A stretch of DNA of 54,917 nt from Patescibacteria group bacterium (GTDB lineage: Bacteria > Patescibacteriota > Minisyncoccia > Phycocordibacterales > Phycocordibacteraceae). This document shows, piece after piece, positions 7,338-52,200 of this stretch (within the stretch, counting starts at the first letter, position 1; every line of letters starts with the position of its first letter). The position numbers were made by a program, and so were the translations under genes. The notes under the pieces are model-generated. The model was not told where the DNA came from. It did no database searches and saw only the letters and a list, made by a program, of their open reading frames with translations. Where the stretch lies: assembly GCA_038064695.1 (NCBI GenBank), contig JBBTSO010000002.1, positions 38,252 to 93,168 of the forward strand. Reading direction: 5' to 3'.

Positions 7338-8051
7338 CTACGTTTCGCTTTGGAGTGCACGCTCTGCCGCGTTTTGTTCAGCTTCTTGCTTTGAACGACC
7401 CTCCCCTTCAGATACTGCTACGTCACCAACCGAGAGCGACACCACAAAGCGCTTGTCGTGGTCAGGTCCTTCCGAATGAACTACCTCATACCGCGGGGTG
7501 AGTCCGTACTTTGCTTGCGCGTGTTCTTGGAAACTACTTTTTGCGTCTCTCCACGCGCCACTTGAAACTACCTCGTCAGCTTTACTTAAAACGTGAGCAC
7601 GTATAAAGGTATTTGCTCCTTCAAAACCCTGATCCAAGTAGAGCGCCCCGACGACCGCCTCAAATGTATTTGCCAAAATGGTCGCGCGCGCCCGTCCGGT
7701 GTCTTTTGCTTCACCTTTTGAAAGGAGGAGGCAGTCATTCATTCCCAAACTCTCAGCAATGGTGCCGAGCATAGTGGCATTTACCAATGCAGCGCGGTAC
7801 GCGGTTAGATGCCCCTCCGTGACGTTCGGATATTTTTTAAACAGGTAGTCGGTAACGGAGAGTTCCAACACCGCGTCGCCTAGGAATTCTAGACGTTCGT
7901 TATGTTCCTGTTTGTCGGGAGTCACGCCTCCTCCTTGCTCATTCAAGTACGAGCGGTGAGTGAACGCTGTTTTGAGGAGCGACTCGTCATGAAATGACAC
8001 TCCCGCGCGTTTTAAAAATATATCAAAAGCTTTTTGTTTTTCTTCGGTCAT
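7338..8051 (-). CDS. rnc: ribonuclease III
   Basis: RNase III signature ERLEFLGDAVLEL plus a C-terminal dsRBD (GPDHDKRF...GEGRSKQEAEQNAA). Its ATG overlaps the upstream TGA (ATGA at 8048-8051). Confidence 0.92.
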   Translation of the reverse strand: MTEEKQKAFDIFLKRAGVSFHDESLLKTAFTHRSYLNEQGGGVTPDKQEHNERLEFLGDAVLELSVTDYLFKKYPNVTEGHLTAYRAALVNATMLGTIAESLGMNDCLLLSKGEAKDTGRARATILANTFEAVVGALYLDQGFEGANTFIRAHVLSKADEVVSSGAWRDAKSSFQEHAQAKYGLTPRYEVVHSEGPDHDKRFVVSLSVGDVAVSEGEGRSKQEAEQNAAERALQSET

Positions 8052-8926
8052 ATACCTGTGTTTCGTGCAGCGACAATACCTGATTCTATAATACTTCGCA
8101 AGTCTTCATACGTCTCTAGCTCACGAAAATCATCTTCATGAAACCAATTCGCATCAGAAACCGTATGGCCATGCGAAACGCGCAGTGTTTCTTTAGGAGC
8201 GTACGCGAGGAAGTACCCCACGCGGCGCACCACGTTTGCCTCTTTCGGGTCATGTGCCTGGTACTCATGTTCCGCAAGTGGCGCCTGAATGCTCACCGTT
8301 CCCAGTCCAAGTTCTTCGCGCGCGGCGCGAAGCGCCGCGCTGTCGGAGAGTTCACCCTCCTTAAGATGCACTTTGGGCAACGTCCACTTTCCAAAGAGGT
8401 CTTTCACGAGCGCCACGAACACTCCGTCGTCTTCCACCGCGCACACCACCACGCCTGCTAGAAATTCTTTTTCTTTTCGCTTGGGCGCTTCCTCGCGGCG
8501 CGGGCTCCCAAGCTCTTTATACACGCTTCCTAAAACACCGTTGACGAACCTGCTGGACGACTCGCTACCGAATGTTTTGGCAAGCTCTATTGCTTCGTTT
8601 AATGCCACTTTGGGAGGGACTGATTTGGTGTCGCCAAAGAGCAACTCAAAGAGCCCAATGCGAAGAATGTTGCGGTCAATAGGGGCAATTTTGGGGAGTG
8701 GCCATTGAGGCGCCATACGCTCCAGGACTGCGTCTATTTCGTCTCGCTTGGAAGCAATACCGCGAATGAGCGTATCGGTAAAGGGTTGATCTTCGTCATC
8801 GCGACTAATAGACGCGCTATTTTTTTGCAAAGAGGTGGTGATGGCTTCAAAAGAGAGGTCGCCCAGGATGTCTGAGGAAAAGAGCGCCTGGAGCGTGCTG
8901 ATGCGTGAGAGGTGTCGTGAGGCCAT
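8048..8926 (-). CDS. nusB: NusB-like antitermination domain fused to a Nudix hydrolase domain
   Basis: N-terminal ~150 aa are NusB-like (RISTLQALFS..., IDRNILRIGLFELLF, ALNEAIELAKTFG, FVNGVLG). A KR-rich linker follows. The C-terminal domain carries a Nudix box GE-x7-RAAREELGL in which the usual RE reads RA. ATG at 8926 preferred over the TTG at 8938. Confidence 0.75.
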   Translation of the reverse strand: MASRHLSRISTLQALFSSDILGDLSFEAITTSLQKNSASISRDDEDQPFTDTLIRGIASKRDEIDAVLERMAPQWPLPKIAPIDRNILRIGLFELLFGDTKSVPPKVALNEAIELAKTFGSESSSRFVNGVLGSVYKELGSPRREEAPKRKEKEFLAGVVVCAVEDDGVFVALVKDLFGKWTLPKVHLKEGELSDSAALRAAREELGLGTVSIQAPLAEHEYQAHDPKEANVVRRVGYFLAYAPKETLRVSHGHTVSDANWFHEDDFRELETYEDLRSIIESGIVAARNTGI

Positions 8927-9003
8927 ATAAAAGAACAACGTGAAGGTTCTAGCTTTTAGCTTACAGGCTTTAGACTAAAAAAACAACGTAGAAAACGTCA
9001 CTC

Positions 9004-11578: not shown

Positions 11579-14500
11579 ATGACGCCCACTCACCTCTCTG
11601 CTCACTCTCACTATAGCTTATTGAATGGGCTCCCCAAGGTGGATGAGCTCGTGGCGCGCGCGCGCTCATACGGAATGGAGGCGCTCGCGTTAACCGACCA
11701 CAACAACCTCTACGGCGCGCTTGAGTTTTACAAAGCGTGTAAAGAAGAAGGAATAAAACCGCTCGTAGGTGTTGATATGGATTGTTCCGTTTCAGGAACG
11801 CCAGGGAGACTCATTCTACTTGCGCTCTCCGAGCGTGGGTACCGAGCACTTATTTCTCTCGTGTCTTCAGCGCACCTTGCGCACCCAAATGAAGCACCTC
11901 GCCTCGATTTAGATACGCACGCATCACCTGTAGACGACGTGGTAGCACTCATACCCGAAGAAACGCTACAAAACTCTGGAGAACTTTTCGTCAAAAGCGC
12001 GCGCGCGTATTTTGGAGATGAGCACGTCTACGCCAGACTCGGCTGGACCACGTCGCGCGAGGCGCGAAGTGCATTTGCCACACGTGCTCGCGCGCTGTCA
12101 CTCCCCTTAATCGCGGGAGACGACACGTATTACTTAGCACCCGAAGATGCTCCCGCGCGCGACGTGGTGCGTCGCATTGCCGACCCCAGCACCCCACGCG
12201 ATGAGGGAGACCGTACCTTCATTGAACCCTCTCTATTTGAAACACACTACCGTGATTTTCCTGAAGCGTTAGAAAACATGAATGCACTCGTGGCGCGCGC
12301 CACCGTTGAACTAAAGCTTGGCTCGTGGCTGTTCCCCCGCTTCCCCATACCCGAAGGAACAACGTATGAAGGTGAGCTCGCACGTCTCGCGAAAGAAGGG
12401 TTTGAAGCGAAGCAACTCCCCCACACCAAGGCAATTGAAGATCGTCTTGAATACGAACTCTCTATCATTAATGGTAAAGGATTCGCCCCCTACTTTCTTG
12501 CCGTTGCTGACCTTTTGAAATTCGCCCGGGAAAACGGCGTCCTTACCACCACCCGCGGGTCCGCCGCCGGTTCTCTTGTTTCCTACGTTACCGGCATTAC
12601 CACCATCAACCCTATTGAGTACGAACTTCCTTTTGAACGTTTCTTAAACCCTGAACGCCCTAAAGCGCCCGATATTGACATGGACTTTGCCGACGTGCAC
12701 CGCGACCGTATGCTCGCGTACGCAAAAACTCGATACGGGAGCGACCACGTGGCGCAAATAGGTACGTTTGGAACCATGATGGCGCGCGCGGCGGTCCGCG
12801 ACGTCGCGCGCGCTTTGGGGTACTCATACGGCATTGGCGATCGAATCGCGAAACTCATTCCGTTTGGAAGCCAGGGATTCCCTATGACCATTGAAAAAGC
12901 GCTTGAAATGGAAGAAGAACTCCGCTCGCTGTACCAGAGCGACGAAGACGCAGAAATTATTATCAACACGGCAAAGCGCGTTGAGGGGAACGCGCGCCAC
13001 ATTTCAATTCATGCAGCCGGCATTGTCATCGCGCCGTCTCCTGTTACCGACTACGTGCCCGTGCAATACGACCCCCACGGAAACGCCATCATCACGCAAT
13101 ACAACATGCACGCGGTGGAAGACGCCGGACTTTTGAAATTTGATTTCCTAGGGCTCACCGTACTTTCCATTCTCGGCGACGCGGTTACGCGCGTAAAAAA
13201 GAGAAAGAACATAGACATAGATATTGAAAATATTCCCCTGGATGACCCACACGTTTTTGCGATGCTTGGACGCGGGGAAACTGAGGGGCTCTTTCAACTC
13301 GGCGGCGGGGGAATGACTCGGTACCTAAAAGATCTGGAACCTACTTCCATACACGATATTAACGCCATGGTGGCGCTGTACCGCCCTGGTCCTATGGAAT
13401 CAATTCCTGCCTACATTGCACGCAAACGAAATCCCGCGCTCATTCACTACCTTGACCCACGCATGGAGAAAATTTTGGATCGCTCCTACGGCATCGTGAC
13501 CTACCAAGACGACGTGCTCTTGCTTGCGGTTGAACTCGCCGGGTACACGTGGCTTGAAGCCGACAACTTGCGTAAAGCAATGGGTAAAAAAATTCCCGCG
13601 GAAATGGAAGCGCAGAAAGAAAAATTTATTTCTGGTTGTATTCAAAAAGGAGGTATTACCCACGCCAACGCGCAGTCACTGTGGCGACTCATTGAACCAT
13701 TCGCCGCCTACGGATTTAACAAAGCGCACGCGGCGAGCTACGGAAAAGTCGCGTACCAAACCGCGTATATGAAAGCGCACCACGCGGCCGACTATATGGC
13801 CTCCGTGATGTCGGCGGACGCGGGCGCGGTAGATAAAATTTCAATTCACGTCGCTGAGTGCGCGCGTCTTGGCATTAAGGTGCTCCCACCTTCGGTTTCC
13901 GAATCAGACTGGACGTTCACGGTGGTTGACGATAAAAAAATTCGTTTCGGGTTGGACTCTATAAAAAACTTTGGCGAAGCTTCCGCGCGCGCCATCATTC
14001 TTGAGCGCGCGCGTGGCCCCTTCACCAGCGTGGGCGACTTTGCTTCACGCATCCCGTCAGGGGTACTCAATAAACGCGGTTTAGAAGCACTCATTAAAGC
14101 AGGGGCGCTTGACGTGTTCGGTGACCGCACCGATATGCTCGCGCACGGTGAAGAAATTCTCGCGGCACTGTCACCTAAAAAAACAACGGAAGAAAATCAG
14201 GGTGCGCTCTTCAGCATGGAGCACCGCGCGCCCACTATTGCTATTTCAGCAAACGACACCACTCCACTCACCGAAAAACTGGAGTGGGAAAAAGAGCTCC
14301 TCGGCATTTATGTTTCAGGGCATCCGGTAGACCCGTGCCAAGAAGCACTTGCCCCCTACCCTCACTCTATATTGAACGCACGTGAAGAAGACCGAAACGG
14401 ATTTTCCATTATTCTAGGCGGAGCCATAGAGCAGGTAAAAACGATTCTCACAAAAAAAGGCGAGCGTATGGCATTCATTACCATCGCGGACCGTGAAGCG

Positions 14501-14650: not shown

Positions 14651-14935
14651 CTAATTTCCACCGAGACACCGGCCAATACACATCCAATACTGTTGTGAGT
14701 CTTCTTCGAAGCCGGCGTTCACGCACTGTGTGTGACATACCTTTGCCTGATCCCACGCGTACGCTTTGCCATCGTTTTCCTGATCTTCTTCGTCATCATC
14801 TTCTTCGTCATCGTATTCATAGTCTATGTCAGATGACGACGATACCATGACGGTTGTGAGAAACGCGCCAAGAATTAACAGTATCGTTATGTTTCTTACA
14901 CTCCACAATGAATCACCCCGTATCACTTCGCTCAT
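14651..14935 (-). CDS. small secreted/anchored acidic protein with a twin CX3C motif (94 aa)
   Basis: N-terminal TM segment (ITILLILGAFLTTVMV), a D/E run (YEYDDEEDDDEEDQEND), then C-HTQ-C ... C-IGR-C. TATAGT lies 8 nt upstream of the ATG. Confidence 0.5.
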   Translation of the reverse strand: MSEVIRGDSLWSVRNITILLILGAFLTTVMVSSSSDIDYEYDDEEDDDEEDQENDGKAYAWDQAKVCHTQCVNAGFEEDSQQYWMCIGRCLGGN

Positions 14936-16805: not shown

Positions 16806-19800
16806 TTAACGAGCTACATCAAACGCCTGCGCGAGGGCAATCTTAAACCCGGTGAATGGATTTGAGTACGTTGTTTCAAGCGCGCGTGACAAAATTTCAA
16901 TGTACGACGCCATAGTTTCTAGTGACACCATGTGTGATTTTTCAAGAAGCGCAACGTGCTCAGATGAGGTATTTGCTTTGCGAGCGCGGAAGAGTGCGTC
17001 CAAGAGCGACACCGTATCAGTGATAGTCTTTGTTGCTGATACTCCACTTCCTTCAAGGTCACGGACTAAGCTGAAAACCGCATCGCGATTTCCCGTAAGG
17101 AGTGCTGAAACGAGTAACTCATTTACAGAATCTGATACTGCATGAACGGTCGCAGGCGACAGTACCTCTTTGATGTGGGTAAACCCGCGTGCTGGTGCAG
17201 AAACAATCGTTGCGTTCTGCGCGGTAATAATTGCGTGAAGGCGATCACTTGAGAGCAACACCCACCCATCTTCGCGAGGAATAGTACGTACCGCTTCATT
17301 TAAGATATCTCCAAAGACACGAAGTGTTTGCGCGCGGTCGGTTGAAAGCGTAAGTACTGCCGCCCGTGCCTCAGGAGAAAGAAGTACTCCCGCCGCGTTT
17401 GCGCGTGATTCAACTACTTCTGCTAATTCTGGAATCCCATCAACGGCAACTGGCGCCGCAACTGGAACAGGTGCTGGTGGAGTCATCACTGAAGGCGAAA
17501 TTGCACGAGAAGGCGCGTGGGCAAGAGTTGATTGGTGAATCGCTAATGTCGCAACAGGTGCTGGATGAGCGTGCTCAGTTTCGTAGTGTTCAGCGTTGTC
17601 GTATGCTACGTACTCCTGATCCTCTTCGTGACGATCAGCACGCTGTGGAGCAAAGGTAAATACTTTTCCTGCAATAAACTGCATACTCTGTTTACCTAGA
17701 ACCACGTACGAGATTCCAATACTCCATACCACTACCGAGAGCCAGAAGAGCGCCGTCAAAAGTGGTCCTGCTTCAAAGCCAGTGTAGGGAACTTGAGCAA
17801 GCGAAACGTACGCGGCGAGTACCTGACCACCAGGCGCCTTCGTGAGAGAAACAGTTGGCTGGTTTAATCCCCCTCCACAGTTACCCTGACATCCTCCGCC
17901 TCCTTTTTCTACTTCAACAATAGCTGAACAGGTAGTTGTTCCGTATGGTCCTGTAAAGGTTCCCGTGTACGTCGTAGTGTCTGAAGGGTACAGATCATCG
18001 GTCGTTCCTCCTGAAACAGGAGTGGTCGTTCCCACGTGGGTGATGGTTCCGTTGGAAACGTTGGTAGAAGTCCACGATACAGTGATCGATTCCCCTGTCT
18101 TAATTTTTGAATGACTGACCGTGAGTGTACATTGTGGCGCAGGTGTCGTTGGTGTGTAGGTAATAGTTACTGAACATGTTTTTGTTTCTCCTCCAACGCC
18201 CGTAACGGTTCCCGTGTATGTGGTTGTCTGAGTTGGGTTTACGGTATGTGTTCCAACAAAATCATGGACAGGGCCATCGTAGAGCGTAACGCTGTTTAAG
18301 ACTGCCTTGATAATATTGTCCGCGGTGTACGAAATGATGACTGCCTCTCCGGGAGTAGTAATGGTCGTTTTATTAGCAGAGAGAGTACAGTTCGGCGCGT
18401 CAGGTGGTGGAATTTCAATAGTCTTAGTACAGGTGACTGTTTTGTTTGTTGGTCCCGTTCCCGTGAGTTTATACGTATGTGTTCCCACACCAAGCACAGG
18501 ATTAAATGTCTTTGAACCATCAACGGGCAAGTTAACTCCAACCGTCGGAGAAGAGGTGAGCGGAACGACGACGACGCTTGAAACGTTGGTTGTATTCCAC
18601 GTTAGTTTTTCCTTCGTGAGTGTCAACGTACAGATTGGATCACCTGGTGGTGGCGGTAATACCTGCTTGTTTTTAAAGACTACTGCCGCACAAACTGAAC
18701 CTGCGGGTACATTTACTACTCCTCCTGTAGGGGTTACTGAAACCAATTCCCATGCACTCCCTGGGTCAATTTCGGTCACGGTGTGATTTCCTGGTGTGAC
18801 ATTGGTAAATGTTGCATCACCATTTGCGTCGGTGGTAACGGTTTTCGTGCCGCCATCAAGCTTAAAGGTGAACTGCGCGACCGGAGTGAGAATATTACCC
18901 ACGGTATCGTACGTTTCTTTTTTCACTTTTATACATCCAGGTCCTGGTGGGGGCGGAACAATAACGGTCTTTTGACACTGAGCAGAACCCCCCGGACCAG
19001 TAGCGGTCAAAAGGTACGTGTGGGTTCCCACACCAAGTGGCGGAACAAAATTATGCGAACCTGATAGTGGGTACGTACTTCCTGAAGACGCGGTCACGCA
19101 GGTAAAATTGTAACGGAGGTGTGGGTCGTTGCCGGAAGCTGGTACGACGCTCCACGCTGAACCATTCCACAAAGCAATGGTGTTATTTCCAGGACTTGAG
19201 AAGGTATCGGTTTGAAATGTTCCGTTGACACTCCCCGGATACACGATAGAACAAAGGCGGTCCGCAGTTGCTTTATTTGCTTTGAAGCTTGCGTTCCCCA
19301 AAGTTACTCCACCGTAGGTAGTTGCATCAGTTTGAAACGTTGCCGCGTGGTTTGTTTTAAAGGTCCCAAAGTCGCCGCTAAATACCGTGACACCTCCTGC
19401 TGAACCACCCGTGGCACCGGGCACTTGTGGAGAATTGGTCAACGGAACAATGGTAACGGTGTTGGCGTTGTTTGATGTCCACGAAATAGCATCTTTAGTA
19501 AGATCCAATGTACAAATCGGAGGATTGGGCGGCGGAGTAACCGTAACGGTGGTAGAACAGGTTGCGGTCCCTGAGTACGTTCCTTTTACGGTAGCAGTAT
19601 AAGTGATAGTTGACCCTACCTGTACTGACTTCGTTCCTGAAGAAACGATACCGGTTAGATTTTGTGTCGCAAGGACCCCTTTATCTATAGAAATTGATGA
19701 GGCGTAGGTAGTATGCCAATTAAGCGTAACAGGCCCCGCTGAGGCAAGTGTGTTAGGAGTTGCCCATAGTGAACACGTAGGAGTAATAGACCCACCGCCA

Positions 19801-20033
19801 CCGCCGCCCTCGCCACCTCCTCCTCCCCAACCACCGCCACCGCCAATAAATCCAGGACCATCCACGTAATGAGTACACCCCACGCAGTCAACAAACGCCT
19901 CCGCTACATTCGCATTAGGTGTGACAACTGCAGATATCGTGTCAAAAGTAACCCACGCGCCGAAGAGCATCACTCCGAATAGAGCGATTGAGGTGAACGT
20001 TTTATTGACGGTGTTTAGGTTCATGGAATTCAT
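16806..20033 (-). CDS. large multi-domain surface adhesin with an internal sortase-type sorting signal and a C-terminal cytoplasmic domain
   Basis: 1075 aa. It has an N-terminal signal/anchor and a Gly tract (GGGGGWGGGGGEGGGGGG). At least 6 Ig-like modules are each bracketed by Cys (e.g. PICTL...C..T[IV]). One module is Cna-B/SpaA-like (CIKVKKETYD...TVTEID...FKNKQ). VPYTG (17778..17792) is followed by TM segment LLTALFWLSVVVWSIGISYVVLG, then K, then about 295 further aa. Confidence 0.7.
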   Translation of the reverse strand: MNSMNLNTVNKTFTSIALFGVMLFGAWVTFDTISAVVTPNANVAEAFVDCVGCTHYVDGPGFIGGGGGWGGGGGEGGGGGGSITPTCSLWATPNTLASAGPVTLNWHTTYASSISIDKGVLATQNLTGIVSSGTKSVQVGSTITYTATVKGTYSGTATCSTTVTVTPPPNPPICTLDLTKDAISWTSNNANTVTIVPLTNSPQVPGATGGSAGGVTVFSGDFGTFKTNHAATFQTDATTYGGVTLGNASFKANKATADRLCSIVYPGSVNGTFQTDTFSSPGNNTIALWNGSAWSVVPASGNDPHLRYNFTCVTASSGSTYPLSGSHNFVPPLGVGTHTYLLTATGPGGSAQCQKTVIVPPPPGPGCIKVKKETYDTVGNILTPVAQFTFKLDGGTKTVTTDANGDATFTNVTPGNHTVTEIDPGSAWELVSVTPTGGVVNVPAGSVCAAVVFKNKQVLPPPPGDPICTLTLTKEKLTWNTTNVSSVVVVPLTSSPTVGVNLPVDGSKTFNPVLGVGTHTYKLTGTGPTNKTVTCTKTIEIPPPDAPNCTLSANKTTITTPGEAVIISYTADNIIKAVLNSVTLYDGPVHDFVGTHTVNPTQTTTYTGTVTGVGGETKTCSVTITYTPTTPAPQCTLTVSHSKIKTGESITVSWTSTNVSNGTITHVGTTTPVSGGTTDDLYPSDTTTYTGTFTGPYGTTTCSAIVEVEKGGGGCQGNCGGGLNQPTVSLTKAPGGQVLAAYVSLAQVPYTGFEAGPLLTALFWLSVVVWSIGISYVVLGKQSMQFIAGKVFTFAPQRADRHEEDQEYVAYDNAEHYETEHAHPAPVATLAIHQSTLAHAPSRAISPSVMTPPAPVPVAAPVAVDGIPELAEVVESRANAAGVLLSPEARAAVLTLSTDRAQTLRVFGDILNEAVRTIPREDGWVLLSSDRLHAIITAQNATIVSAPARGFTHIKEVLSPATVHAVSDSVNELLVSALLTGNRDAVFSLVRDLEGSGVSATKTITDTVSLLDALFRARKANTSSEHVALLEKSHMVSLETMASYIEILSRALETTYSNPFTGFKIALAQAFDVAR

Positions 20034-20035
20034 AA

Positions 20036-20650
20036 TTATAGTAATGGTTCTCGGGTTTTGTAATCTGCGGTGACGACGTATCGCTCCCCGGGATCTCCGA
20101 AGGAGTTACACGTTGAGAGAATTAAAGTTTTTTCACCTGCTTCAAGTGGAATCAATGCATTATCCGCGTTAACTAGTGATACTGAGGTAACGGTGTATTC
20201 ATACACTGCGTTGTCTGAGAATACCTGAATGGTATCGCCAGACTCAAGTTTCTGAAGGTCGTTAAACGCCTTAAACGCTTTGTTTTTTACAACTGGAAGG
20301 TAACTTTGGTGCCCAAAGAGGAAAATAGGCGCGTCCTCTCCAAGTAGTGCGCTGCCTGGGTAGCGTACTGCGCCAGCGAGAAGCGCCGCATCCAACACTT
20401 CAAGTACTGCCGATGTAGGATTTTCAATAGTGGTGTCAACACCAATATCTTTAATGACGATCCGTGTCGGCGTTTCAATCACGACTTCTTGAGAAGTGCT
20501 CTTCGTTTCTTTCGTGTTTTTTTCAACGGATATTTTTGGTTCCGGTACAAAATCAATACCGTACAAAAAAACCGACGTTAAAAAGAACATAAGAAAAAAG
20601 ATTCCAAGGAATCTAAGGCTGGTGCGGGTGGTGTTGTGGTCACTGTTCAT
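20036..20650 (-). CDS. sortase-family transpeptidase
   Basis: N-terminal TM segment, catalytic His (IFLFGHQS), Cys (TLILSTCNS) and a downstream Arg (GERYVV). Its stop lies 2 nt before the adhesin start. ATG at 20650 preferred over the TTG at 20719. Confidence 0.8.
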   Translation of the reverse strand: MNSDHNTTRTSLRFLGIFFLMFFLTSVFLYGIDFVPEPKISVEKNTKETKSTSQEVVIETPTRIVIKDIGVDTTIENPTSAVLEVLDAALLAGAVRYPGSALLGEDAPIFLFGHQSYLPVVKNKAFKAFNDLQKLESGDTIQVFSDNAVYEYTVTSVSLVNADNALIPLEAGEKTLILSTCNSFGDPGERYVVTADYKTREPLL

Positions 20651-20744
20651 GAATGTTCGTTCGCTACAACGGGGAAAATAAAATTCACTTTCCGTATCTT
20701 CAGCGTGCGAAAACCTCAACGTGTATGCTCAGGTTTCAAAGAGT

Positions 20745-20773
20745 ATTCTATAGAATAAAAACCAATTTGTCAA
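20745..20773 (-). promoter_or_regulatory. promoter of the sortase-adhesin operon, TTGACA-17-TAGAAT
   Basis: Minus strand: TTGACA (20773..20768), 17 nt, TAGAAT (20750..20745). The -10 lies inside the 14-nt palindrome TATTCTATAGAATA (20744..20757). Confidence 0.5.
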
Positions 20774-20824: not shown

Positions 20825-20853
20825 TTGACAAACGTATCATAGTGTGATATTTA
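20825..20853 (+). promoter_or_regulatory. promoter TTGACA-17-TATTTA, 8 nt upstream of the ATG at 20862
   Basis: Plus strand: TTGACA (20825..20830), 17 nt, TATTTA (20848..20853). Confidence 0.5.
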
Positions 20854-20861
20854 TGGACGAT

Positions 20862-21902
20862 ATGGAAAATAAATCAGGGAACAACATGTTTGACGTCGCT
20901 ACACGCGCACTCGCCATTGTTGGCTTTTTAGCAATTATTGGTATTGGTTTGTGGGGCACTGCTTCAGTTGCTCGTGGCGCCCCAGGAGTCTTTTCTGCAA
21001 TCGCCGCAGCTATCGTTTCTTTGACCTCTATCTTTGTTCCTGCTGACGAGGAAATTGTGCTTTCAGTTCCCTCTCTCACGGTGCTCTCAGGAGAATCATT
21101 CACCATTTCTTGGGAACACGCTAAGAAAAATACCGAGGGTTCTTACACCTTCCGATACGACTGTGCTGACGGTGTTTCATTCACTTCACCTTCTCAATCA
21201 GGCGCCGAAACGACCGTTTTCTGTAATATTCCCTTCAACTTCTTAAACAGCAAGGACTCAATTACCCTCACTCCCCTCTCAACAAAAAACCGCTTTATTG
21301 ATGTGACACTTCACGTTGACTTCACTCCAAACGGCGCAAACCAGCCAACCGTATCTGGTTCAACCTCCCTCACCATTGCAAATGAAAATATCGGCGGAAG
21401 CCCTGTGGTTACCGGTACCACTCCCACCACTCCCGTTAAAACACCCACTCCCACCAAAGGTCCTGAAACGTCTGGTGTGTATGAAATAGCGAATGGTCCC
21501 GTGGCTTCAAACCCCAACGGTCCTACCGACCTCGTTGCGCGCATTATTGAATTAGGCGTCGTTGATAAAACAACCGGTGCGTTCACCGCTTCTTCAACGC
21601 CGAACCGCTCAACTATCACTCATCGTGTTGCCGTACGTTTCGCCGTTGAAAATGTTGGTACGCGAACGTCGCCACAGTGGACCTTCAACGCCGTTTTGCC
21701 TACCTTTCCTTCCCACATCTTCAGTTCACCCATGCAGCAAGCACTTGGTCCCGGTGACCGTATTGAATTCACCATCGGCTTTGACAGTTTGGCTGATACC
21801 AATGAAGGAACCCTCGTTATTAACGTGGACCCTTCGAACCGTATAAACGAGGCAAACAAAATCAACAACATTTTGACCTACAAGGTAATCACGGTGAAGT
21901 AG
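20862..21902 (+). CDS. membrane-anchored surface protein with a C-terminal CARDB-like domain
   Basis: N-terminal TM segment (LAIVGFLAIIGIGLWG), a Thr/Pro linker (TGTTPTTPVKTPTPTKGP), and a CARDB-like end (PTDLVARII...VRFAVENVGTRTS...LGPGDRIEF...VDPSNRINEANKINN). The start is chosen 8 nt after the -10. Confidence 0.6.
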   Translation: MENKSGNNMFDVATRALAIVGFLAIIGIGLWGTASVARGAPGVFSAIAAAIVSLTSIFVPADEEIVLSVPSLTVLSGESFTISWEHAKKNTEGSYTFRYDCADGVSFTSPSQSGAETTVFCNIPFNFLNSKDSITLTPLSTKNRFIDVTLHVDFTPNGANQPTVSGSTSLTIANENIGGSPVVTGTTPTTPVKTPTPTKGPETSGVYEIANGPVASNPNGPTDLVARIIELGVVDKTTGAFTASSTPNRSTITHRVAVRFAVENVGTRTSPQWTFNAVLPTFPSHIFSSPMQQALGPGDRIEFTIGFDSLADTNEGTLVINVDPSNRINEANKINNILTYKVITVK

Positions 21903-36410: not shown

Positions 36411-38078
36411 CTACCGTTCTGGTTTTGGCAAGTCGAGGTGTGCAAATGGTTCATAGTCACCCCGCACCACTTTTTTCCCAGGATTAAAAATATCAAAAGG
36501 ATCAAAAATTGATTCAACCGATTTAAACAACCCAGTCATTGCGGGACCAAACATGCGCTCAACGTACGGGGTTCGCGCGTACCCATCGTTATGTTCTCCA
36601 CTTATGGACCCCCCGTACTTCAACACGAGCGCATATACTTTTTCAGACAACTCGGTAACGAGTGTCACACCGTCAGTGCGCTTCGGGTCAATTAACGGAA
36701 TGATATGAAAGTTTCCATCTCCTACGTGGCCAGCAACCGTATAGGTTAAGTCATATTCTTTTAAAATACTATTCAGATGTGGTAGAAACTCGGGAAGGGT
36801 TGCGGGAGGTACCACGAAGTCTTCAATAAAAGGCGCCGTGCGCTTCCCGCGCACTTTTTTTCGAAGAAGATTGAAACTTTCTCGTCGCACAACCCAGTAC
36901 TTTCGTGCAGCGCGCTCGTTTTTCGCTAAAAAGATTCCCGGTGATGTTTTTGTCTGACGCAACTCTTGAATGAGTTTTTTGGCGCGCAAAAGCGCGTCGG
37001 AAGACGCGTCTGAACGAAATTCAACGAGGAGCACGAGTTTGGGAACACCACTCGTCAACAAGCGCCACACTTCGGGGAGAAACGCGAAACCGAGTCCAAT
37101 AATATTCGTTTTCATCTGGAGCGCAAATTCAGGAAAATATTTTGCGGCAAGCGTAAACGTGTTGTCGTCGTAGGATTCAAAACTGTCGGGCGCGTGTTTC
37201 AAAATAGTGGGAACGAGCGACCCTAAATCAGCAATGTCATTAACGAACACCACCGCCATAGACGCGTATTTTTTAGGACGCACGAGGCGGAAGCGAATTT
37301 TGGTAATAATACCCATCGTCCCCTGACTTCCCGTCATGAGACGCGCTACATTGAGTGAGTCAACGCCATCCCCCACATCCCACAACGCGTATCCTGAGGA
37401 ATTTTTGACCACGCGAGGGCGGTGTTCCTCTATCGTCTGGCCATGTTCGCGAATGATATTGCTCAGCGCTCGGTATGCCTCTCCGATAAATGATTGCTCC
37501 TGAAGTTTTTCTTTAAGCGCCGCTCCACTTACCTTTTTTAGGGTGTGAACTTCTCCATCAGCGAGCACCATTTCAAGCTCCTCTACGTATCGCGCAGTTT
37601 TCCCGTACTTCAAATGTTTTTCGCCTCCCGCGTCATTTCCTACCATTCCACCCACCGTACATATTTCACGGCTGGCGGTATAGGAAGGGAGTTCAAGATT
37701 TTTCTTTTTTGTCTCTCGGTCAAAGTCGCGGAAGTAGACCCCTGGCTCAACAACAGCGTATCCTCCCTCTTCGTCTTCTCCCACCTCTATAACTGAGTTG
37801 AAGTGAGGAAGCATATCAACCACGACAGATTCAGTGAGGGGGCCACCGCTCATATCAGTGCCCGCGGCACGCGGAGTTAAAGAAATCACGTTTCCTTTCT
37901 TTTTTTCTTGCGTCACGTACGACACCAGCCGCTGTACATCTTTTGTATTTTTTGGCCTGACAACAACAGTGGGTGTTACCTTAAAAAGGCTCGCGTCGCG
38001 GCTATATTTTTCTCTTGTTTCATCACTATCATCCACTTCCCCTTCAAGAAGGGCGCGCAATTCGAAAGCTAAAGTCAT
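36411..38078 (-). CDS. FAD-linked oxidase (GlcD / D-lactate dehydrogenase-like, PCMH-type FAD-binding domain)
   Basis: 555 aa. FAD-binding region PRAAGTDMSGG...GGMVGNDAGG and C-terminal oxidase region HVGDGNFH...SGEHNDG. TATAAT lies 6 nt upstream of the ATG. Confidence 0.75.
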   Translation of the reverse strand: MTLAFELRALLEGEVDDSDETREKYSRDASLFKVTPTVVVRPKNTKDVQRLVSYVTQEKKKGNVISLTPRAAGTDMSGGPLTESVVVDMLPHFNSVIEVGEDEEGGYAVVEPGVYFRDFDRETKKKNLELPSYTASREICTVGGMVGNDAGGEKHLKYGKTARYVEELEMVLADGEVHTLKKVSGAALKEKLQEQSFIGEAYRALSNIIREHGQTIEEHRPRVVKNSSGYALWDVGDGVDSLNVARLMTGSQGTMGIITKIRFRLVRPKKYASMAVVFVNDIADLGSLVPTILKHAPDSFESYDDNTFTLAAKYFPEFALQMKTNIIGLGFAFLPEVWRLLTSGVPKLVLLVEFRSDASSDALLRAKKLIQELRQTKTSPGIFLAKNERAARKYWVVRRESFNLLRKKVRGKRTAPFIEDFVVPPATLPEFLPHLNSILKEYDLTYTVAGHVGDGNFHIIPLIDPKRTDGVTLVTELSEKVYALVLKYGGSISGEHNDGYARTPYVERMFGPAMTGLFKSVESIFDPFDIFNPGKKVVRGDYEPFAHLDLPKPER

Positions 38079-38130: not shown

Positions 38131-38835
38131 ATGGATACAGAAAAACAGGCTCACGAAACTCTCGTAGCAGAACTGAACGACCCAAAAACATTAGAAGAGT
38201 ATAAAAAATCGTGCGACAACGCTCGCGTTGCACTGCTCCCCCGCCTCCTGGGAAATTTTTTGGTATGGGCAGGCAACACACTCTACGGAGATAAACCGAC
38301 CTACCTTAAATTTCGCGCCGTGGAAGTCATTGCACGCGTTCCCTACCACTCCTGGGCAGCGGTCGCGCACACACTCCTCACTATGTTCTACCGCGACGAA
38401 AAACGCGCCCTCAAATTATGTGAAGACAACAACTTTGCGCGACTCTCCCAAGAAAATGAAACTATGCACGTTATTGTCATTTCAAAGCTCGCCACGGAAG
38501 AACAGAAAGACAACATGCTCGTTCATACCATTATTCCGATGCTCTTTGCCTTCTTCTACTACTGGATGAGTTACCTAATGTACCTCTTTCAGCCACGCTG
38601 GTCTATGCAACTCAACTACCTCTTTGAAGATCACGCATTCAGCCAGTACGACCGTTTCTTAAAAGAAAACGAAGAAACGCTTAAAAACAAGTTGGTGACG
38701 AGCGACTTTCTATTGTGGTATGGTCGCGACCCACTGTCACAGTACGAATTCTTTCAATCGGTACGCAACGACGAGTTGATACACCGAAACAAATCAATCC
38801 ATGGGACGAGTCGCGCACAGAATGGGATACAATAA
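38131..38835 (+). CDS. alternative-oxidase / plastid-terminal-oxidase (AOX/PTOX)-like di-iron carboxylate protein
   Basis: Four motifs in the AOX/PTOX order: AVEVIARVPYH (LETxAxVP-like), QENETMHVI (NExMH), YLFEDHAFSQYDRFL (LEEEA / ExxH-like) and VRNDELIHR (RxDExxH). Confidence 0.7.
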   Translation: MDTEKQAHETLVAELNDPKTLEEYKKSCDNARVALLPRLLGNFLVWAGNTLYGDKPTYLKFRAVEVIARVPYHSWAAVAHTLLTMFYRDEKRALKLCEDNNFARLSQENETMHVIVISKLATEEQKDNMLVHTIIPMLFAFFYYWMSYLMYLFQPRWSMQLNYLFEDHAFSQYDRFLKENEETLKNKLVTSDFLLWYGRDPLSQYEFFQSVRNDELIHRNKSIHGTSRAQNGIQ

Positions 38836-41755: not shown

Positions 41756-42874
41756 TTATCGCACTGACGTGTATCCTCCCAAAACACCATTTTTAGAAAG
41801 CACGATTTGCCAGAGCTGATTGTTTTGTCGTGAACGAAACGCACCGGCCATTGAAAGTAGGTAGTACCTCCACATACGGTAAAATCGTTCATTGTATTTT
41901 TCTTTAAGTTGCGGCCACGCAGCATCAAAATTTTTCATCCACGCCATGAGTGTGGGGTCGTAGTAGGGTCCAAAGTTATGCCAATCCTCCATAACAAATA
42001 TTCCTTCAATAGCTTCAGCAATCTGTTTAATTGAGGGGAGGAGTCCGTTAGGAAAAATATATTTATGAAACCACGGATCCGCGAGCGTGGTCGTTTTATT
42101 ACTCCCAATGTGGTGCAAAAGAAATAACCCATCATCTTTTAAAATATTTCGCACCGTTTTCATCATAGTGCGGTGATTTTTATACCCCACGTGTTCAATC
42201 ATTCCCACGCTCACCACTTTGTCATATGAACCCGTAAGGTCTCGATAGTCGCATTTTAAAATTTCAACAGGCAACCCCTTCGTGTACGATTGTGCGTACG
42301 CAATCTGTTCATCCGAAATACTGACGCCGGTTACGGTGCATCCATATTTTTCTGCAGCAAATTTGGCGAGTCCTCCCCACCCGCAGCCAATATCAAGCAG
42401 GTGGTCTTCTTTTTTTAACTGTAGTTTCCTACAAATGAGGTCAAGTTTATCTTCTTGCGCCTTGTTCAAGTCGTCTTTTGTCTGTGCAAAGTAGCCACAC
42501 GTGTATTGGTTGTAGGGGTCAAGGAACGACATATAGAGGTCATTTCCGAGATCATAATGCTCATCGATGACTTTTCGAGCGCCTCGCTTACTTTGTAAAT
42601 TTAGTATTTTTGATTTTAAAATATAGAAGAGTGTTTCAAAACTCATTCCCACTTTTTCATTAACGCGCGCACGAATGAGGCGGCAAACCATCTCGTCAAG
42701 CGCCTCGCAGTCCCACCACCCGTCCATGTAGGATTCACCAAGCGCAAGCGAACCGCCAGTCAAAATTCGCTGATAGAGCTGCTCGTTATGAATCTGCGGG
42801 TCATAGGGATGTGGCCCGTTTATGGTGAGTCCGGCGTAAGAAAGTAGTGTATGAAGTGTCTGCTTCGGGTTCAT
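41756..42874 (-). CDS. cfa: cyclopropane-fatty-acyl-phospholipid synthase family SAM-dependent methyltransferase
   Basis: 372 aa. YDLGNDLY, the SAM motif LLDIGCGWGGL, and MIEHVG. Confidence 0.85.
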   Translation of the reverse strand: MNPKQTLHTLLSYAGLTINGPHPYDPQIHNEQLYQRILTGGSLALGESYMDGWWDCEALDEMVCRLIRARVNEKVGMSFETLFYILKSKILNLQSKRGARKVIDEHYDLGNDLYMSFLDPYNQYTCGYFAQTKDDLNKAQEDKLDLICRKLQLKKEDHLLDIGCGWGGLAKFAAEKYGCTVTGVSISDEQIAYAQSYTKGLPVEILKCDYRDLTGSYDKVVSVGMIEHVGYKNHRTMMKTVRNILKDDGLFLLHHIGSNKTTTLADPWFHKYIFPNGLLPSIKQIAEAIEGIFVMEDWHNFGPYYDPTLMAWMKNFDAAWPQLKEKYNERFYRMWRYYLLSMAGAFRSRQNNQLWQIVLSKNGVLGGYTSVR

Positions 42875-47989: not shown

Positions 47990-49270
47990 TTATCGTAAAC
48001 GAATGCCACGCAAACGAACACCCAGGAGCCTGATGATGCGCGGATAACTTACCAACTGCGTTTCCTCGGCACCAAACGTCCAAAATGTTGCCGAAGCACG
48101 AGTGTTGTTGTATATCGTTAAAATGTCCATTGAGTGTAGGGCTCGCGAGTATACGCGAACATCGTCAATGGTTCCGGCATAATAAAGATCGCGTCGCCCG
48201 ATGTAAAAAGAGTTGGTGGAGTTCGACATACCGGTGTAGGTGCCCGCGTTTGAATTTGAGGTTGAGACAGTAGACCCGTTCGCATAAAGAAACTGCCCCG
48301 CGTTAGTTTCAGATCCGGTGTAGGACACCGCGACGTGATTCCACACTCCGACGGTCAAGGCGTTTGCTGCTGACTTTCCGATGTAGTTTGAAGTACCGTT
48401 GTGGGTTGTACGCCAAATAAAACTTGCTCCTGAGTTGAAAATGTTTAAGTAATACTCCCCGACGTTGAAGTCATCGGCCTTGGTCACCACCCCGCCTGCG
48501 CTTGAAGCAGTTGGTTTTGTCCAGACGAGCACTGACATTGGCTGATCCTGTCCGCCGCTCGTAAAAGAAAGCGAGTCGTTGTCAGCAACTAAAATATGGT
48601 CATCAACACCATCGAATTCGAGTGCACCATCCACCTGCCCTTTTACCTGATCCGCAGTGTCCATACTTCCCGTGTCGGTTCCGTTGTTAGTACCTAGTGA
48701 GTCTGCAATGCCTCCTGCGCCGGCCACCGTGGGGTCTTCGGTTAGGTTCCACACAGATACTTCACCCAAAGCACCGAACGTCCCCGCCTCGTTGGACACG
48801 TCCGATGCTGCATTGTCATCATACCCATAGTAAAGGAGAACGTTTTTTGCGGTCGTTGAAGAAATGTCGGTTGGCTCAACCCAAAGTACAAACTCTCCCG
48901 TCGTTTGGACATATTTTTCAAAGTAGAAGTCGAGAAGCGTGCCACTGTCAGCATTGCAGTCAGTTCCACTGGTCACCGCAACATCGACAGGCGTGGTAGT
49001 ACCGGAGGTAGCGGTTACTTCAAAGATGCGTCCCGCTGAAGAAGTTGCCGCGAGGGTTGAAATGGTAGAGGTTGCAACAAGCGCAAATCCAAGCGTTGTG
49101 GTGGTTGCGATACCGCCTGAGTTTCCCCCTGTAGCCATCGTCAATTTTCGGCAATACTGATAGTCAGTGTTATACCATGCGGCAAAAACGGAAACAGGTA
49201 TAAAAAATACAAACGCGAAAATGCTGATAAACAAGAAAATGTACACTTGCTCTTTTTTGCTGTATTGCAT
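47990..49270 (-). CDS. secreted DUF2341-like plus LamG/concanavalin-A-like lectin domain protein
   Basis: Signal/anchor, then WYNTDYQYCRKLT...LDFYFEKY...VLWVEPT...LLYYGYD (DUF2341-like). This is followed by ALEFDGVDDHILV...WNHVAVSY...IDDVRVYSRAL (Laminin_G_3-like). Confidence 0.65.
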   Translation of the reverse strand: MQYSKKEQVYIFLFISIFAFVFFIPVSVFAAWYNTDYQYCRKLTMATGGNSGGIATTTTLGFALVATSTISTLAATSSAGRIFEVTATSGTTTPVDVAVTSGTDCNADSGTLLDFYFEKYVQTTGEFVLWVEPTDISSTTAKNVLLYYGYDDNAASDVSNEAGTFGALGEVSVWNLTEDPTVAGAGGIADSLGTNNGTDTGSMDTADQVKGQVDGALEFDGVDDHILVADNDSLSFTSGGQDQPMSVLVWTKPTASSAGGVVTKADDFNVGEYYLNIFNSGASFIWRTTHNGTSNYIGKSAANALTVGVWNHVAVSYTGSETNAGQFLYANGSTVSTSNSNAGTYTGMSNSTNSFYIGRRDLYYAGTIDDVRVYSRALHSMDILTIYNNTRASATFWTFGAEETQLVSYPRIIRLLGVRLRGIRLR

Positions 49271-49272
49271 AG

Positions 49273-52200
49273 TTATTCTTCGTGGTGAGCGGTGGTATCT
49301 TCGAGTGTTGCACTAACGGCCTCCTGTTCAACGGTTGAGGTGGCTGTTTCAACATTCTCTGACAGTGCGAAGTCGGAAACAACAGAGAGATCGGCATTCA
49401 CCGTCGTCGTGGTCGTTGCTGTTTCAATAATGTTCGTAATGACGACGGTATCACCATTTACTTCAACCTGCTCCCCCACCACAACCGTTCGTGTTGCTTC
49501 ACCAATGTTCCCGTCTGTGTCGGTCGCGCGATACGTAATGGTATATGAAGTCGACGTTGATGTATCTAGAGTTACTACACTGACTTCCGCATCGCCAATG
49601 AACGTGTGAATGCCAAGATTTTGATTAAGATTATCGGTAACCGATGCGCCGAGATCCACGTAGGTTGCACCCACGGCAACGAACGCGGGGTTATTTCCAA
49701 AGAGCGTAATGACTGGTGCTTCTGTGTCAGTAGGTATAGCTACATCGATGGAAGCCGTTGCACCTCCGCGAAGCGCTAAAAGCTCCTTTAATTCTCCTTC
49801 GGTAATGCACGTTTCGCCAATGCACAACTGATTCGTAATATGAATCTCCCGTGTCATAAAACGTTCTGAAAGTGCTGAAAGCTGTGCCGTATTTTCGGTA
49901 ACGACAGCATAGAGATCACGCAATGCCCCGAGCACACTTGCAAGAAGGTCGGGTACACTCATACCGGCAAAAAGTGTTCCTGATTCAAGTGACGCAAAAA
50001 ACGTTTCTGTGTTCTCGGTTGTTTCAGGAACAAGAGAGTCAAGCGCAATGCCATTTACCTTATCAAATTGTTCAAAAATAATACTGATCTTTGCGCGCTT
50101 CTTACCATCTTGAGTCACTGCAGTAACGGTGTTCCAGTCAAGAGGCTGCGCTGCTTTCGCTACTACATGAGATATAAATGCTTCGCCGTCATCTTTCATG
50201 GCGTGTCCCGACACGGCAGAGGTGATGAGGTTGTCGCCCGGTTCAATTGATTCCTCCTCACCCTGGGTCACCCACACGTCGCCGTTACCCACGGCCATAA
50301 TGAGGTACGGGTTTTCCTCCGAAAGAGGTTTAGCTGGCTCCTGGAGCGCGAGCATGACGCCCATAACATTCGATGCGTTTTTTTCGGAAGCGAGCGTGAC
50401 ACCGTATATTGGCTCCGATTCTGCGTTTTCACTCTCGTTCGCGTTTTGACCAGTATAGGCAACCAGCATACCGCGCGGAATGTTCTCACTTGTCGTCGCG
50501 TAGTGGGCGCCGGTGAATGCGCCGTACGTAACGGTATTACCAGCAATAGAAATAGTGGCCTCAGAGGTTCCATCCTGACGGAAGCGCACCAAAACGCCAT
50601 CACTGTCGTTACGGTTAATGTTGAATTCTCCGATTGATACAAACCCTGCCGTTCCGTCAGCACAAAGTGAAATTCCTTCAAGTGCAGAATTTCCAGTGCA
50701 ATTTTCCGCCGTTCTCCCTATAATCACGTCACTTGCAAAGTAGCCACTGCCTGCAATATCAACCCAGAAAAAATCTGCGAGTGTTGTGCCTTTAGAAGCT
50801 CTGAACACTTTTCCGGTCGACGCACCGGTATCAAATGGATAGATAAACTGAAATGCACCGTTATCGTTCGCACCAAAACTGGCGTTTGCAACTTCAACTA
50901 AATAACCGGTGCGTGCGCTTGTAGTTTGAGCCCAAAATGCCGGTTGGTTAATTGAATATCCGTATAACGACTGTGCTCCAGTAGCCCCAGGGGTGACCGT
51001 CACTTTACCATTTGGTGTAGTTGAACCGATACCGATGTTTCCAGCGTTATTAATAATGAATGACGTCGCAGTTGATGAACCAACCACAAACTGGTTGACG
51101 TCACCCGCGACAGGGTTCACGGCAAGTTTTGCGAAAGGAGTGGTACTACCGATGCCCACGAGACCAGTTGAAGCATTGAAATGGGCGATCGCGGAAGCGT
51201 CAAGGGCGCGAAATTCAAAACCTTGTGTTGAAACATTAAAGTAGAGGCCAGCGTCCTGATCTCCGTCGTACCTAAACGCATAATCGTCACCACCAACAAG
51301 GTAATCTCCAGTTCCAGAAAAAGAGAGATCGCCCCCCGAACTCACCCTGAGTAATCCCCCGCTTCCTATACTGAGCCGCGAAGCAGGGGCCGCATCATCA
51401 ATTCCCACATTCCCCGTATTCGTAATTATGAAAGAGGTTGCCGTACTTGATCCCACCACAAACTGGTTCGTGTCGCCCGCGACAGGGTTCACGGCAAGTT
51501 TTGCGAAAGGAGTGGTGGTACCAATGCCGACAAGTCCTGTGGTCAAAGCCGAGATACGCTCATTTCCCCCACCACTCGCCGCATCATATATAGAGAGACG
51601 ACCATCGGAACCATTGTTTAAGCTCCATGTTGAAGTACCAATGTTCACGGTTCCCGCCCAAAGTGCATTCCAGCGTGAAGCACTTGCGCCTAGGTCATAT
51701 GCAGAAAGGTTATTGGTATACGTTCCGTTCGGAATGATGCTATTTGAGGCAAGGTTCCCCGCAACCGAAAGTTTTGCAAAAGGTGACGTCGTACTCACGC
51801 CAACGTTACTATTTGCTTCAAGAATAGTGAGTGCCGTTTCAGTTGACGTCGCAAACGTCGAGGGAGAGGAGGTGGCGAGGTACAGGTTGCCCCCAGCGTT
51901 TCGGAAGGTCCACTGACTTGAGGTTAACGAGCCATCGGTCAAGGCGAGCTGGGGAGCAGTCGATGATGCGACGGTGAGTGCCCATCGAGGTGTGGTGGTA
52001 CCGATACCCACCCAGCCAGAGGTGAAGGAGATGGAGCCGCTTGCGCCGTCAGTCCACTGCGAGGTAGAGATGTTGGACCAACTTCCTCCTGAATTTTTCA
52101 CCTGGATGGTGCCGGTGCTGTCGCGAATACCGTATCCCAAGGTTCCGGAAGTGCCCGCCCAGTTGATGTAGCGTGAGGCTTCTTGGAAGACAAGGTTTGA

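Follow-up and report, generated by a model that had tools for sequence, protein, structure and literature searches.

A 54,917-nucleotide (nt) stretch of a groundwater Patescibacteria genome (GenBank assembly GCA_038064695.1, contig JBBTSO010000002.1; hereafter, the window) contains a sortase gene paired with a large surface-protein gene, and the surface protein carries what reads as an LPXTG-type sorting signal in its interior. This putative sortase target (1075 amino acids [aa]; 16806..20033, minus strand) consists of an N-terminal signal, a modular ectodomain, the pentapeptide VPYTG, a single transmembrane helix, basic residues, and a long tail that is modelled as two folded domains resembling parts of clamp-loader subunits. 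We consider it probable that the two genes encode a dedicated sortase-substrate pair of a Paceibacteria-type Patescibacteria bacterium, in which the enzyme would cleave the T751|G752 bond and transfer the ectodomain to an acceptor in the cell envelope. As predicted here, an internal signal with a clamp-loader-like tail is a variant of LPXTG-type sorting for which we found no earlier description.

The VPYTG pentapeptide (aa 748–752; 17778..17792, minus strand) forms the core of a conserved L.Q[VI]PYTGFEAGP block, and we strongly infer that T751|G752 is the sortase cleavage site. The stretch of the substrate that spans the site reads ...AQVPYTGFEAGP..., and the cleavage region is represented by the peptide SLAQVPYTGFEAGP. 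Based on hydropathy and AlphaFold, the single transmembrane helix, LLTALFWLSVVVWSIGISYVVLG, occupies aa 758–780 (17694..17762, minus strand) and is followed by the basic residues K781, K790, and R796. After the helix, 295 residues remain, and the signal does not lie at the extreme C-terminus. A preliminary description of this locus had already placed VPYTG, the helix, and the basic residues at these positions, with about 295 residues to follow, and the recount agrees on every point.

The protein has two hydrophobic peaks only, at the N-terminus and at aa 758–780, and most members of its family likewise contain exactly two hydrophobic segments. The most hydrophobic 19-residue window starts 3–12 residues past the motif (144 family members), and the 20 aa that follow the helix carry a mean net charge of +1.7, versus −0.1 for the 20 aa preceding the motif (146 members). 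Cysteine content also differs between the two sides, with 2.54 Cys per 100 aa in family ectodomains and 0.29 in tails. Because the Cys-poor tail follows a net-positive stretch, it is probably cytoplasmic, with the ectodomain and its disulfide-bracketed modules outside; the tail fold, compared using Foldseek, is that of cytoplasmic proteins. These indicators therefore suggest that the motif lies on the external side of the membrane, within reach of a membrane-anchored sortase.

The sortase gene (20036..20650, minus strand; 204 aa from the ATG at 20650) lies within an open reading frame (ORF) that spans 20036..20719 and has an alternative TTG start at 20719. Its stop codon is separated by 2 nt from the ATG of the substrate gene (junction CTA TAA tt ATG, preceded by CCA TTA), the same gap that was given in the preliminary description. 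The enzyme has an N-terminal membrane anchor and a sortase domain (Pfam Sortase PF04203: 63 bits, cut-off 26.6, E = 2.9e-17) with the catalytic residues His114 (20309–20311), Cys181 (20108–20110), and Arg190 (20081–20083; all on the minus strand). The His and Cys had been recognized earlier within their motifs, FLFGH and LSTC, and the complete triad is intact in 25/25 aligned neighbour sortases of relatives. The closest solved structures in a PDB sequence search were Bacillus anthracis SrtA (2kw8) and Clostridium perfringens SrtD (4d70). None of the NCBIfam models for sortase classes A–F and GN reached its cut-off (best: class D, 42 bits vs 165; class C: 26.7 bits vs 160; class GN, TIGR03784: 29 bits vs 158). 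A sortase family is known to be enriched in the Candidate Phyla Radiation (CPR; PMC6744442).

The combination of motif, helix, and tail is widespread. A search with this segment returned 8 proteins, and all of those that contain the region show [VI]PYTGFEAGP, a transmembrane helix, and a tail. Among genomes taken one per GTDB species, 25 loci turned up, each of them in Patescibacteria (labelled Paceibacteria, Kaiserbacteria, or similar), and all 25 encode Q[IV]PYTGF, a transmembrane helix, and 299–347 further residues; with an orthologous locus on a 327-kb ENA contig (L001), the motif is kept in 26/26 related genome loci. In an exhaustive HMMER search that covered 1.84 billion cluster representatives (50% identity clusters), a profile of motif, helix, and tail matched 936 protein clusters at E <= 1e-3 and 161 at E <= 1e-30. 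When metagenomes were scanned with the motif alignment ([VI]PYTGFEA), 188 relatives came up, from which 80 loci were kept. A word-indexed protein search returned nothing with a 61-aa query of motif and helix, and the tail alignment gave 8 proteins without useful names. Thus, the survey of relatives suggested in the preliminary description, for [VL]P.TG followed by a helix and a long tail, uncovered hundreds of homologues, and because the layout recurs in all these proteins, the architecture is not due to chance.

The region is present in 144 of the 154 sequences in hand, and each of these 144 keeps [VILT]P[YHE]TG just before the helix (VPYTG in 86, IPYTG in 53, IPHTG in two, and LPYTG, IPETG, and TPYTG in one each). 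The other 10 sequences show no motif followed by a helix; they are short and resemble partial gene calls. Across 138 sequences, conservation reaches at least 90% in every one of the P, Y, T, G, and F columns, which matches the highest conservation elsewhere in the protein. Most relatives have 266–366 residues after the motif, the exceptions being three metagenome loci (L073 and the zero frames of L096 and L104) that are described below.

Linkage between the two genes is equally consistent. A sortase gene lies upstream on the same strand in 23/23 genome loci with enough upstream DNA (22 GTDB loci and L001), in 43/43 metagenome loci that extend >4 kb upstream from the motif, and in two distant members of the family (L027 and L028). 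No sortase was found elsewhere in those 43 metagenome loci, and no other ORF ending in a canonical C-terminal signal ([LIV]PxTG, transmembrane helix, basic residues) was found in 1.37 Mb of related DNA or in the window. Within the DNA read, this family is the only candidate sortase substrate.

Natural variants separate the motif and helix from the tail. Six metagenome loci (L044, L063, L090, L092, L100, and L103) encode tails with the first, lid-like domain only, and no collar domain was found downstream of them in any frame. The orthologue in L073 (8648–10237) is tail-less: it stops 69 residues past the motif and retains the motif, helix, basic residues, upstream sortase, and synteny. In L096 (5055–5075) and L104 (1620–1640), an A9 tract immediately follows the helix and the ORF stops two codons later, so that the zero frame ends in VPYTG, the helix, and KKKVS before the stop codon (...VIKKKVS), which has the form of a canonical C-terminal sorting signal; the tail is encoded further on, in the −1 frame. 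Only 32/142 aligned codons are identical between L096 and L104, with 48 synonymous differences among codons of conserved residues; therefore, the −1 frame is under purifying selection. The A9 tract of L096 recurs without insertion or deletion (indel) in contigs of four runs, each from a different study, the A9 region of L104 carries an A_AAA_AAG heptamer, and a third locus (L095, ~1127–1165) has a differently placed A9 tract, with its tail in the −1 frame. RNA folds downstream of the A9 tracts have z-scores of −1.8 to −3.4 and are not alike. The split may reflect programmed ribosomal frameshifting, transcriptional slippage, or phase variation, any of which could make the tail optional.

These variants show that the motif and helix form an autonomous module that is kept without the tail, whereas no tail was observed without the motif. 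The preliminary description had named loss of the motif, with helix and tail kept, as the pattern that would speak against a sorting signal; that pattern did not occur, given that 144/144 region-bearing members keep the motif, and persistence of motif and helix without the tail is its opposite.

Compared to characterized LPXTG-type systems (e.g., SrtA and protein A of Staphylococcus aureus), the substrate shares the N-terminal signal, the [LIV]PxTG motif, a helix within ~10 residues, and basic residues, and the adjacent enzyme is likewise a membrane-anchored Cys transpeptidase with a His/Cys/Arg triad. Known substrates, however, have their C-terminus just a few residues beyond the basic stretch, whereas here ~295 more residues follow that include two folded, predicted cytoplasmic domains. 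The predicted layout thus matches a tripartite LPXTG-type signal in all features except its position and a match to the curated models. In the 'marine' class GN system (TIGR03784), one sortase is dedicated to a single target protein with a C-terminal signal. The pair described here resembles that system in having one sortase gene tightly linked to one substrate family with an extended, family-specific motif; the motif and the lineage differ, the signal is internal, and the sortase scores far below the class GN cut-off. Literature searches on internal LPXTG signals, long cytoplasmic tails, VPYTG/IPYTG, and sortases in Patescibacteria/CPR returned no description of this architecture or family, and no model for the substrate family was found in Pfam or NCBIfam.

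We infer a course of events that begins with export of the precursor by way of its N-terminal signal. The Ig-like/SpaA-like ectodomain would stay outside, and the transmembrane helix and basic residues would halt translocation. This would leave the Q[VI]PYTGFEAGP block at the outer face of the membrane, beside the membrane-anchored sortase, which, using His114/Cys181/Arg190, would cut T751|G752 and transfer the ectodomain to a cell-envelope acceptor, most likely a peptidoglycan precursor. A remnant of ~324 aa (G752–R1075) would be left in the membrane, with the linker and two clamp-loader-like domains inside the cell. The tail would most likely serve as a protein-protein interaction or oligomerisation module that positions or clusters the precursor, or that persists as a tethered product.

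Several points weigh against this proposal. The signal is not C-terminal, whereas the textbook definition of a sorting signal includes a C-terminal position, and the curated anchor models TIGR01167 and PF00746 show no match at E <= 0.1. Conservation extends past the pentapeptide (L.Q before and FEAGP after it), which could reflect another juxtamembrane function. The sortase fits no characterised class, and its substrate specificity cannot be read from class membership. About 10 kb was read per locus, and other sortases or substrates may lie elsewhere in those genomes; what speaks for cleavage itself is the linkage of the two genes. Finally, most members have kept the tail in well-conserved form, and the intact, uncleaved protein could be the working form.

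The retained tail, the conservation beyond the pentapeptide, and the unmatched anchor models could also be explained by a bitopic adhesin or receptor that is never cleaved and links extracellular binding to a cytoplasmic module, with PYTGF as a juxtamembrane element and the sortase serving other proteins. We regard this explanation as unlikely. The block fits [LIV]PxTG exactly, with the correct spacing to the helix and basic residues, and in ~70/70 informative loci the sortase gene lies directly upstream, with no alternative substrate in the 1.37 Mb of related sequence. Moreover, the tail-less and zero-frame-truncated forms keep the motif and helix.

The proposed ectodomain has the makeup of a surface protein. 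It is preceded by the signal peptide or anchor (aa 1–46; 19896..20033; hydropathy peak at aa 12–37), which has a counterpart N-terminal hydrophobic segment in 101/115 full-length homologues, and by a Gly tract (aa 62–81; 19791..19850). The ectodomain itself (aa 87–702; 17928..19775; all on the minus strand) combines Cys-bracketed Ig-like modules with one SpaA/Cna-B-type module. Cys pairs bracket four clear modules of ~70 aa with the pattern CTL...TYT.T..G..TC, and a fifth Cys-bracketed module carries a large insert (aa 174–353). The SpaA/Cna-B-type module (aa 367–448; 18690..18935, minus strand) matches PF17802 (25.4 bits vs a cut-off of 23.1). The earlier count of at least six Cys-bracketed modules is therefore about right. 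Ectodomain lengths vary widely in the family (304 to 1617 aa).

Some of these features recall the class C pilin substrates of Streptococcus pneumoniae, which use [VI]PxTG signals (RrgB IPQTG and RrgC VPDTG; PMC5640630), contain a SpaA/Cna-B-type module, and are encoded next to a sortase. Given these signals, VPYTG is not as non-canonical as the preliminary description had held. It is conceivable that the enzyme is a class C-type pilin polymerase: after cutting T|G, it would attach ectodomains to a lysine in a further subunit, or in the CARDB-domain protein that is often encoded beside the sortase, and build a covalent fibre or layer instead of fixing single molecules to peptidoglycan. However, the 1075-aa protein contains no YPK, PKN, or PK (pilin-motif lysine), and we rejected the substrate as a classical pilin on this ground. 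It also differs from class C pilins in its long cytoplasmic tail and single sortase. As a rule, pilus loci depend on a separate housekeeping sortase. With one sortase per locus here and a class C model score of 26.7 bits against 160, polymerization of this kind appears quite doubtful.

The tail begins with a His/Pro/Ala-rich disordered linker (aa ~794–863; 17445..17654, minus strand; predicted local distance difference test [pLDDT] <50), whose length and sequence vary among homologues and whose alignment columns are not conserved. It is followed by an AAA+-lid-like domain (aa ~870–945; 17199..17426; pLDDT >95) that corresponds to clamp-loader domain II and carries the family motifs E.RA.A..VLLS.EA and PREDGW, and by a helical collar-like domain (aa ~960–1074; 16812..17156; both on the minus strand) that corresponds to domain III. 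The AlphaFold2 model of aa 723–1075 shows the transmembrane helix, the disordered linker, and two confident domains, and a second model of the tail alone, for which 27 sequences were aligned, reaches a mean pLDDT of 89.3. When both models were compared with the PDB using Foldseek, the top 50 matches were all clamp-loader, RFC, or MgsA subunits, including Escherichia coli gamma and delta and Bacillus subtilis delta, with alignments of ~212 columns that cover both domains in order (best E 7.8e-5; template-modelling [TM] scores 0.43–0.46). As modelled, the tail has the lid and collar fold of clamp-loader domains II and III. The structure prediction and structure search proposed in the preliminary description thus gave a confident fold with clamp-loader-type matches only; its His/Pro/Ala linker and helical fold were borne out, whereas the single domain that it described is in fact two.

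Sequence similarity to clamp loaders is weak. Pfam DNA_pol3_gamma3 (PF12169) matches the second domain below its cut-off (E = 0.003; 17.7 bits vs 24.4), weak Pfam matches occur in few of 27 members (DNA_pol3_gamma3 in 2/27, Hda_lid in 3/27), and hhalign aligns the tail colinearly with E. coli DnaX 182–358 at P = 0.012. A PDB sequence search with the motif-to-tail profile gave only chance-level proteasome matches (E ~1). No AAA+ ATPase domain I or Walker motif was found in the protein, which has no AAA Pfam match and has the transmembrane helix and disordered linker in front of the lid. Given the missing ATPase domain and the sub-threshold sequence score, the tail resembles a clamp loader in fold and not in membership, and a genuine clamp-loader subunit was rejected. 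Compared to DnaX (gamma/tau), HolA (delta), and HolB (delta'), the tail matches lid and collar in order; it differs in lacking domain I, in being membrane-tethered, and in its family-specific PREDGW and VLLS.EA motifs, which are not clamp-loader features. Tail domains of family members share 21–53% identity (138 sequences).

The exclusive structural matches to clamp-loader, RFC, and MgsA subunits, together with the location of the substrate gene two genes from dnaE in conserved synteny, raise the idea that the tail docks through its collar-like domain on the DnaX clamp loader or another AAA+ machine and tethers the replication machinery to the membrane, a link that sortase cleavage or tail loss would modulate. 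Because sequence-level similarity is marginal, lid-only and tail-less variants show that the collar is dispensable, and the dnaE synteny may be inherited gene order, we judge this very improbable. There is a precedent for a remnant with an intracellular function in Streptococcus gordonii, where, as summarized in PMC11326707, the SGO_1180 two-component system senses the transmembrane remnant that SrtA leaves behind; that remnant is only a short transmembrane peptide, whereas the one predicted here would comprise ~324 aa with folded domains. The boldest form of the proposal is that this is the first class of sortase substrates in which cleavage parts a wall-bound ectodomain from a functional cytoplasmic lid and collar protein, which could dock on the replisome's clamp loader or another AAA+ machine and would couple surface assembly in these ultra-small bacteria to replication or the cell cycle, with slippage at an A9 tract just behind the helix switching the tail on or off in some lineages; we consider this a long shot.

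The idea that the long ORF is an assembly chimera or two genes fused by a sequencing error, which the frameshift-split homologues L001, L095, L096, and L104 might suggest and which the preliminary description had raised against its own reading, can be dismissed because independent groundwater Logan contigs (four runs of two studies) cross the junction of motif, helix, and tail without an indel or joint and >100 full-length homologues from unrelated assemblies have the identical continuous architecture. In L001 (7860–11191), the gene call for the orthologue is split in two (694 aa and 396 aa) by a frameshift inside an Ig-like ectodomain module, which may have arisen in assembly or may truly disrupt the gene.

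Upstream of the sortase gene, a promoter-like site (TTGACA-17-TAGAAT, 11/12 consensus match; 20745..20773, minus strand) is a candidate promoter of the two-gene operon of sortase and substrate; it is a consensus match only, and similar sites in the region are no more numerous than in shuffled sequence. Divergent from the sortase lies the gene of a membrane-anchored CARDB-domain protein (352 aa; 20844..21902, plus strand; Pfam CARDB) without a sorting signal. A homologue is present in 19/26 related genome loci searched, and a CARDB neighbour is divergent and <600 nt from the sortase in 32/42 metagenome loci and likewise in L027, L028, and L073. It is uncertain whether this protein is a component of the sortase system. 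The distant members L027 and L028 share the entire gene order, from gyrB through the divergent surface protein, sortase, substrate, thrS, and dnaE to rnhB. In L027 (4641–5857) and L073 (7628–8528), two small secreted or lipoprotein-like genes without a sorting signal lie between sortase and substrate.

Other genes of the window were recorded in passing. Between dnaE and thrS, a 94-aa ORF (14651..14935, minus strand) with one hydrophobic segment, a poly-Asp/Glu run, and a Cys-rich C-terminus matched no Pfam family, and L001 has a small ORF at the equivalent position (13272..13520). A 296-aa ORF (8048..8938, minus strand) fuses NusB and NUDIX hydrolase domains and is likewise called in L001 (18426..19310). 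Patescibacteria are generally held to be without respiratory chains. In this apparent Patescibacteria genome, a gene with a Pfam AOX (alternative oxidase) match (38131..38835, plus strand; E = 2.3e-11) adjoins an FAD-linked oxidase gene (36411..38078). A cyclopropane-fatty-acyl-phospholipid synthase homologue (41756..42874, minus strand; Pfam CMAS, E = 6.6e-84) lies beside an ABC-2 transporter pair. Two large putative surface proteins (47990..54849, minus strand) have 1858 aa with a Bact_surface_Ig-like domain and 426 aa with a LamG domain; no sortase-type signal was found in either of them.

An internal signal joined to a folded cytoplasmic domain in a large, conserved family breaks the rule that sorting signals are C-terminal. 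Because standard predictors need a C-terminal signal, such substrates are invisible to them, and no curated model matches this one. The family of 936 clusters sits in a core-gene neighbourhood (gyrB, thrS, and dnaE) and appears to have a sortase dedicated to it. It belongs to a major radiation of uncultivated bacteria, whose host-dependent lifestyle is believed to rest on their surface biology. If cleavage occurs as proposed, each sorting event would leave a membrane-tethered, clamp-loader-like protein inside the cell, a new coupling of surface display to an intracellular process.

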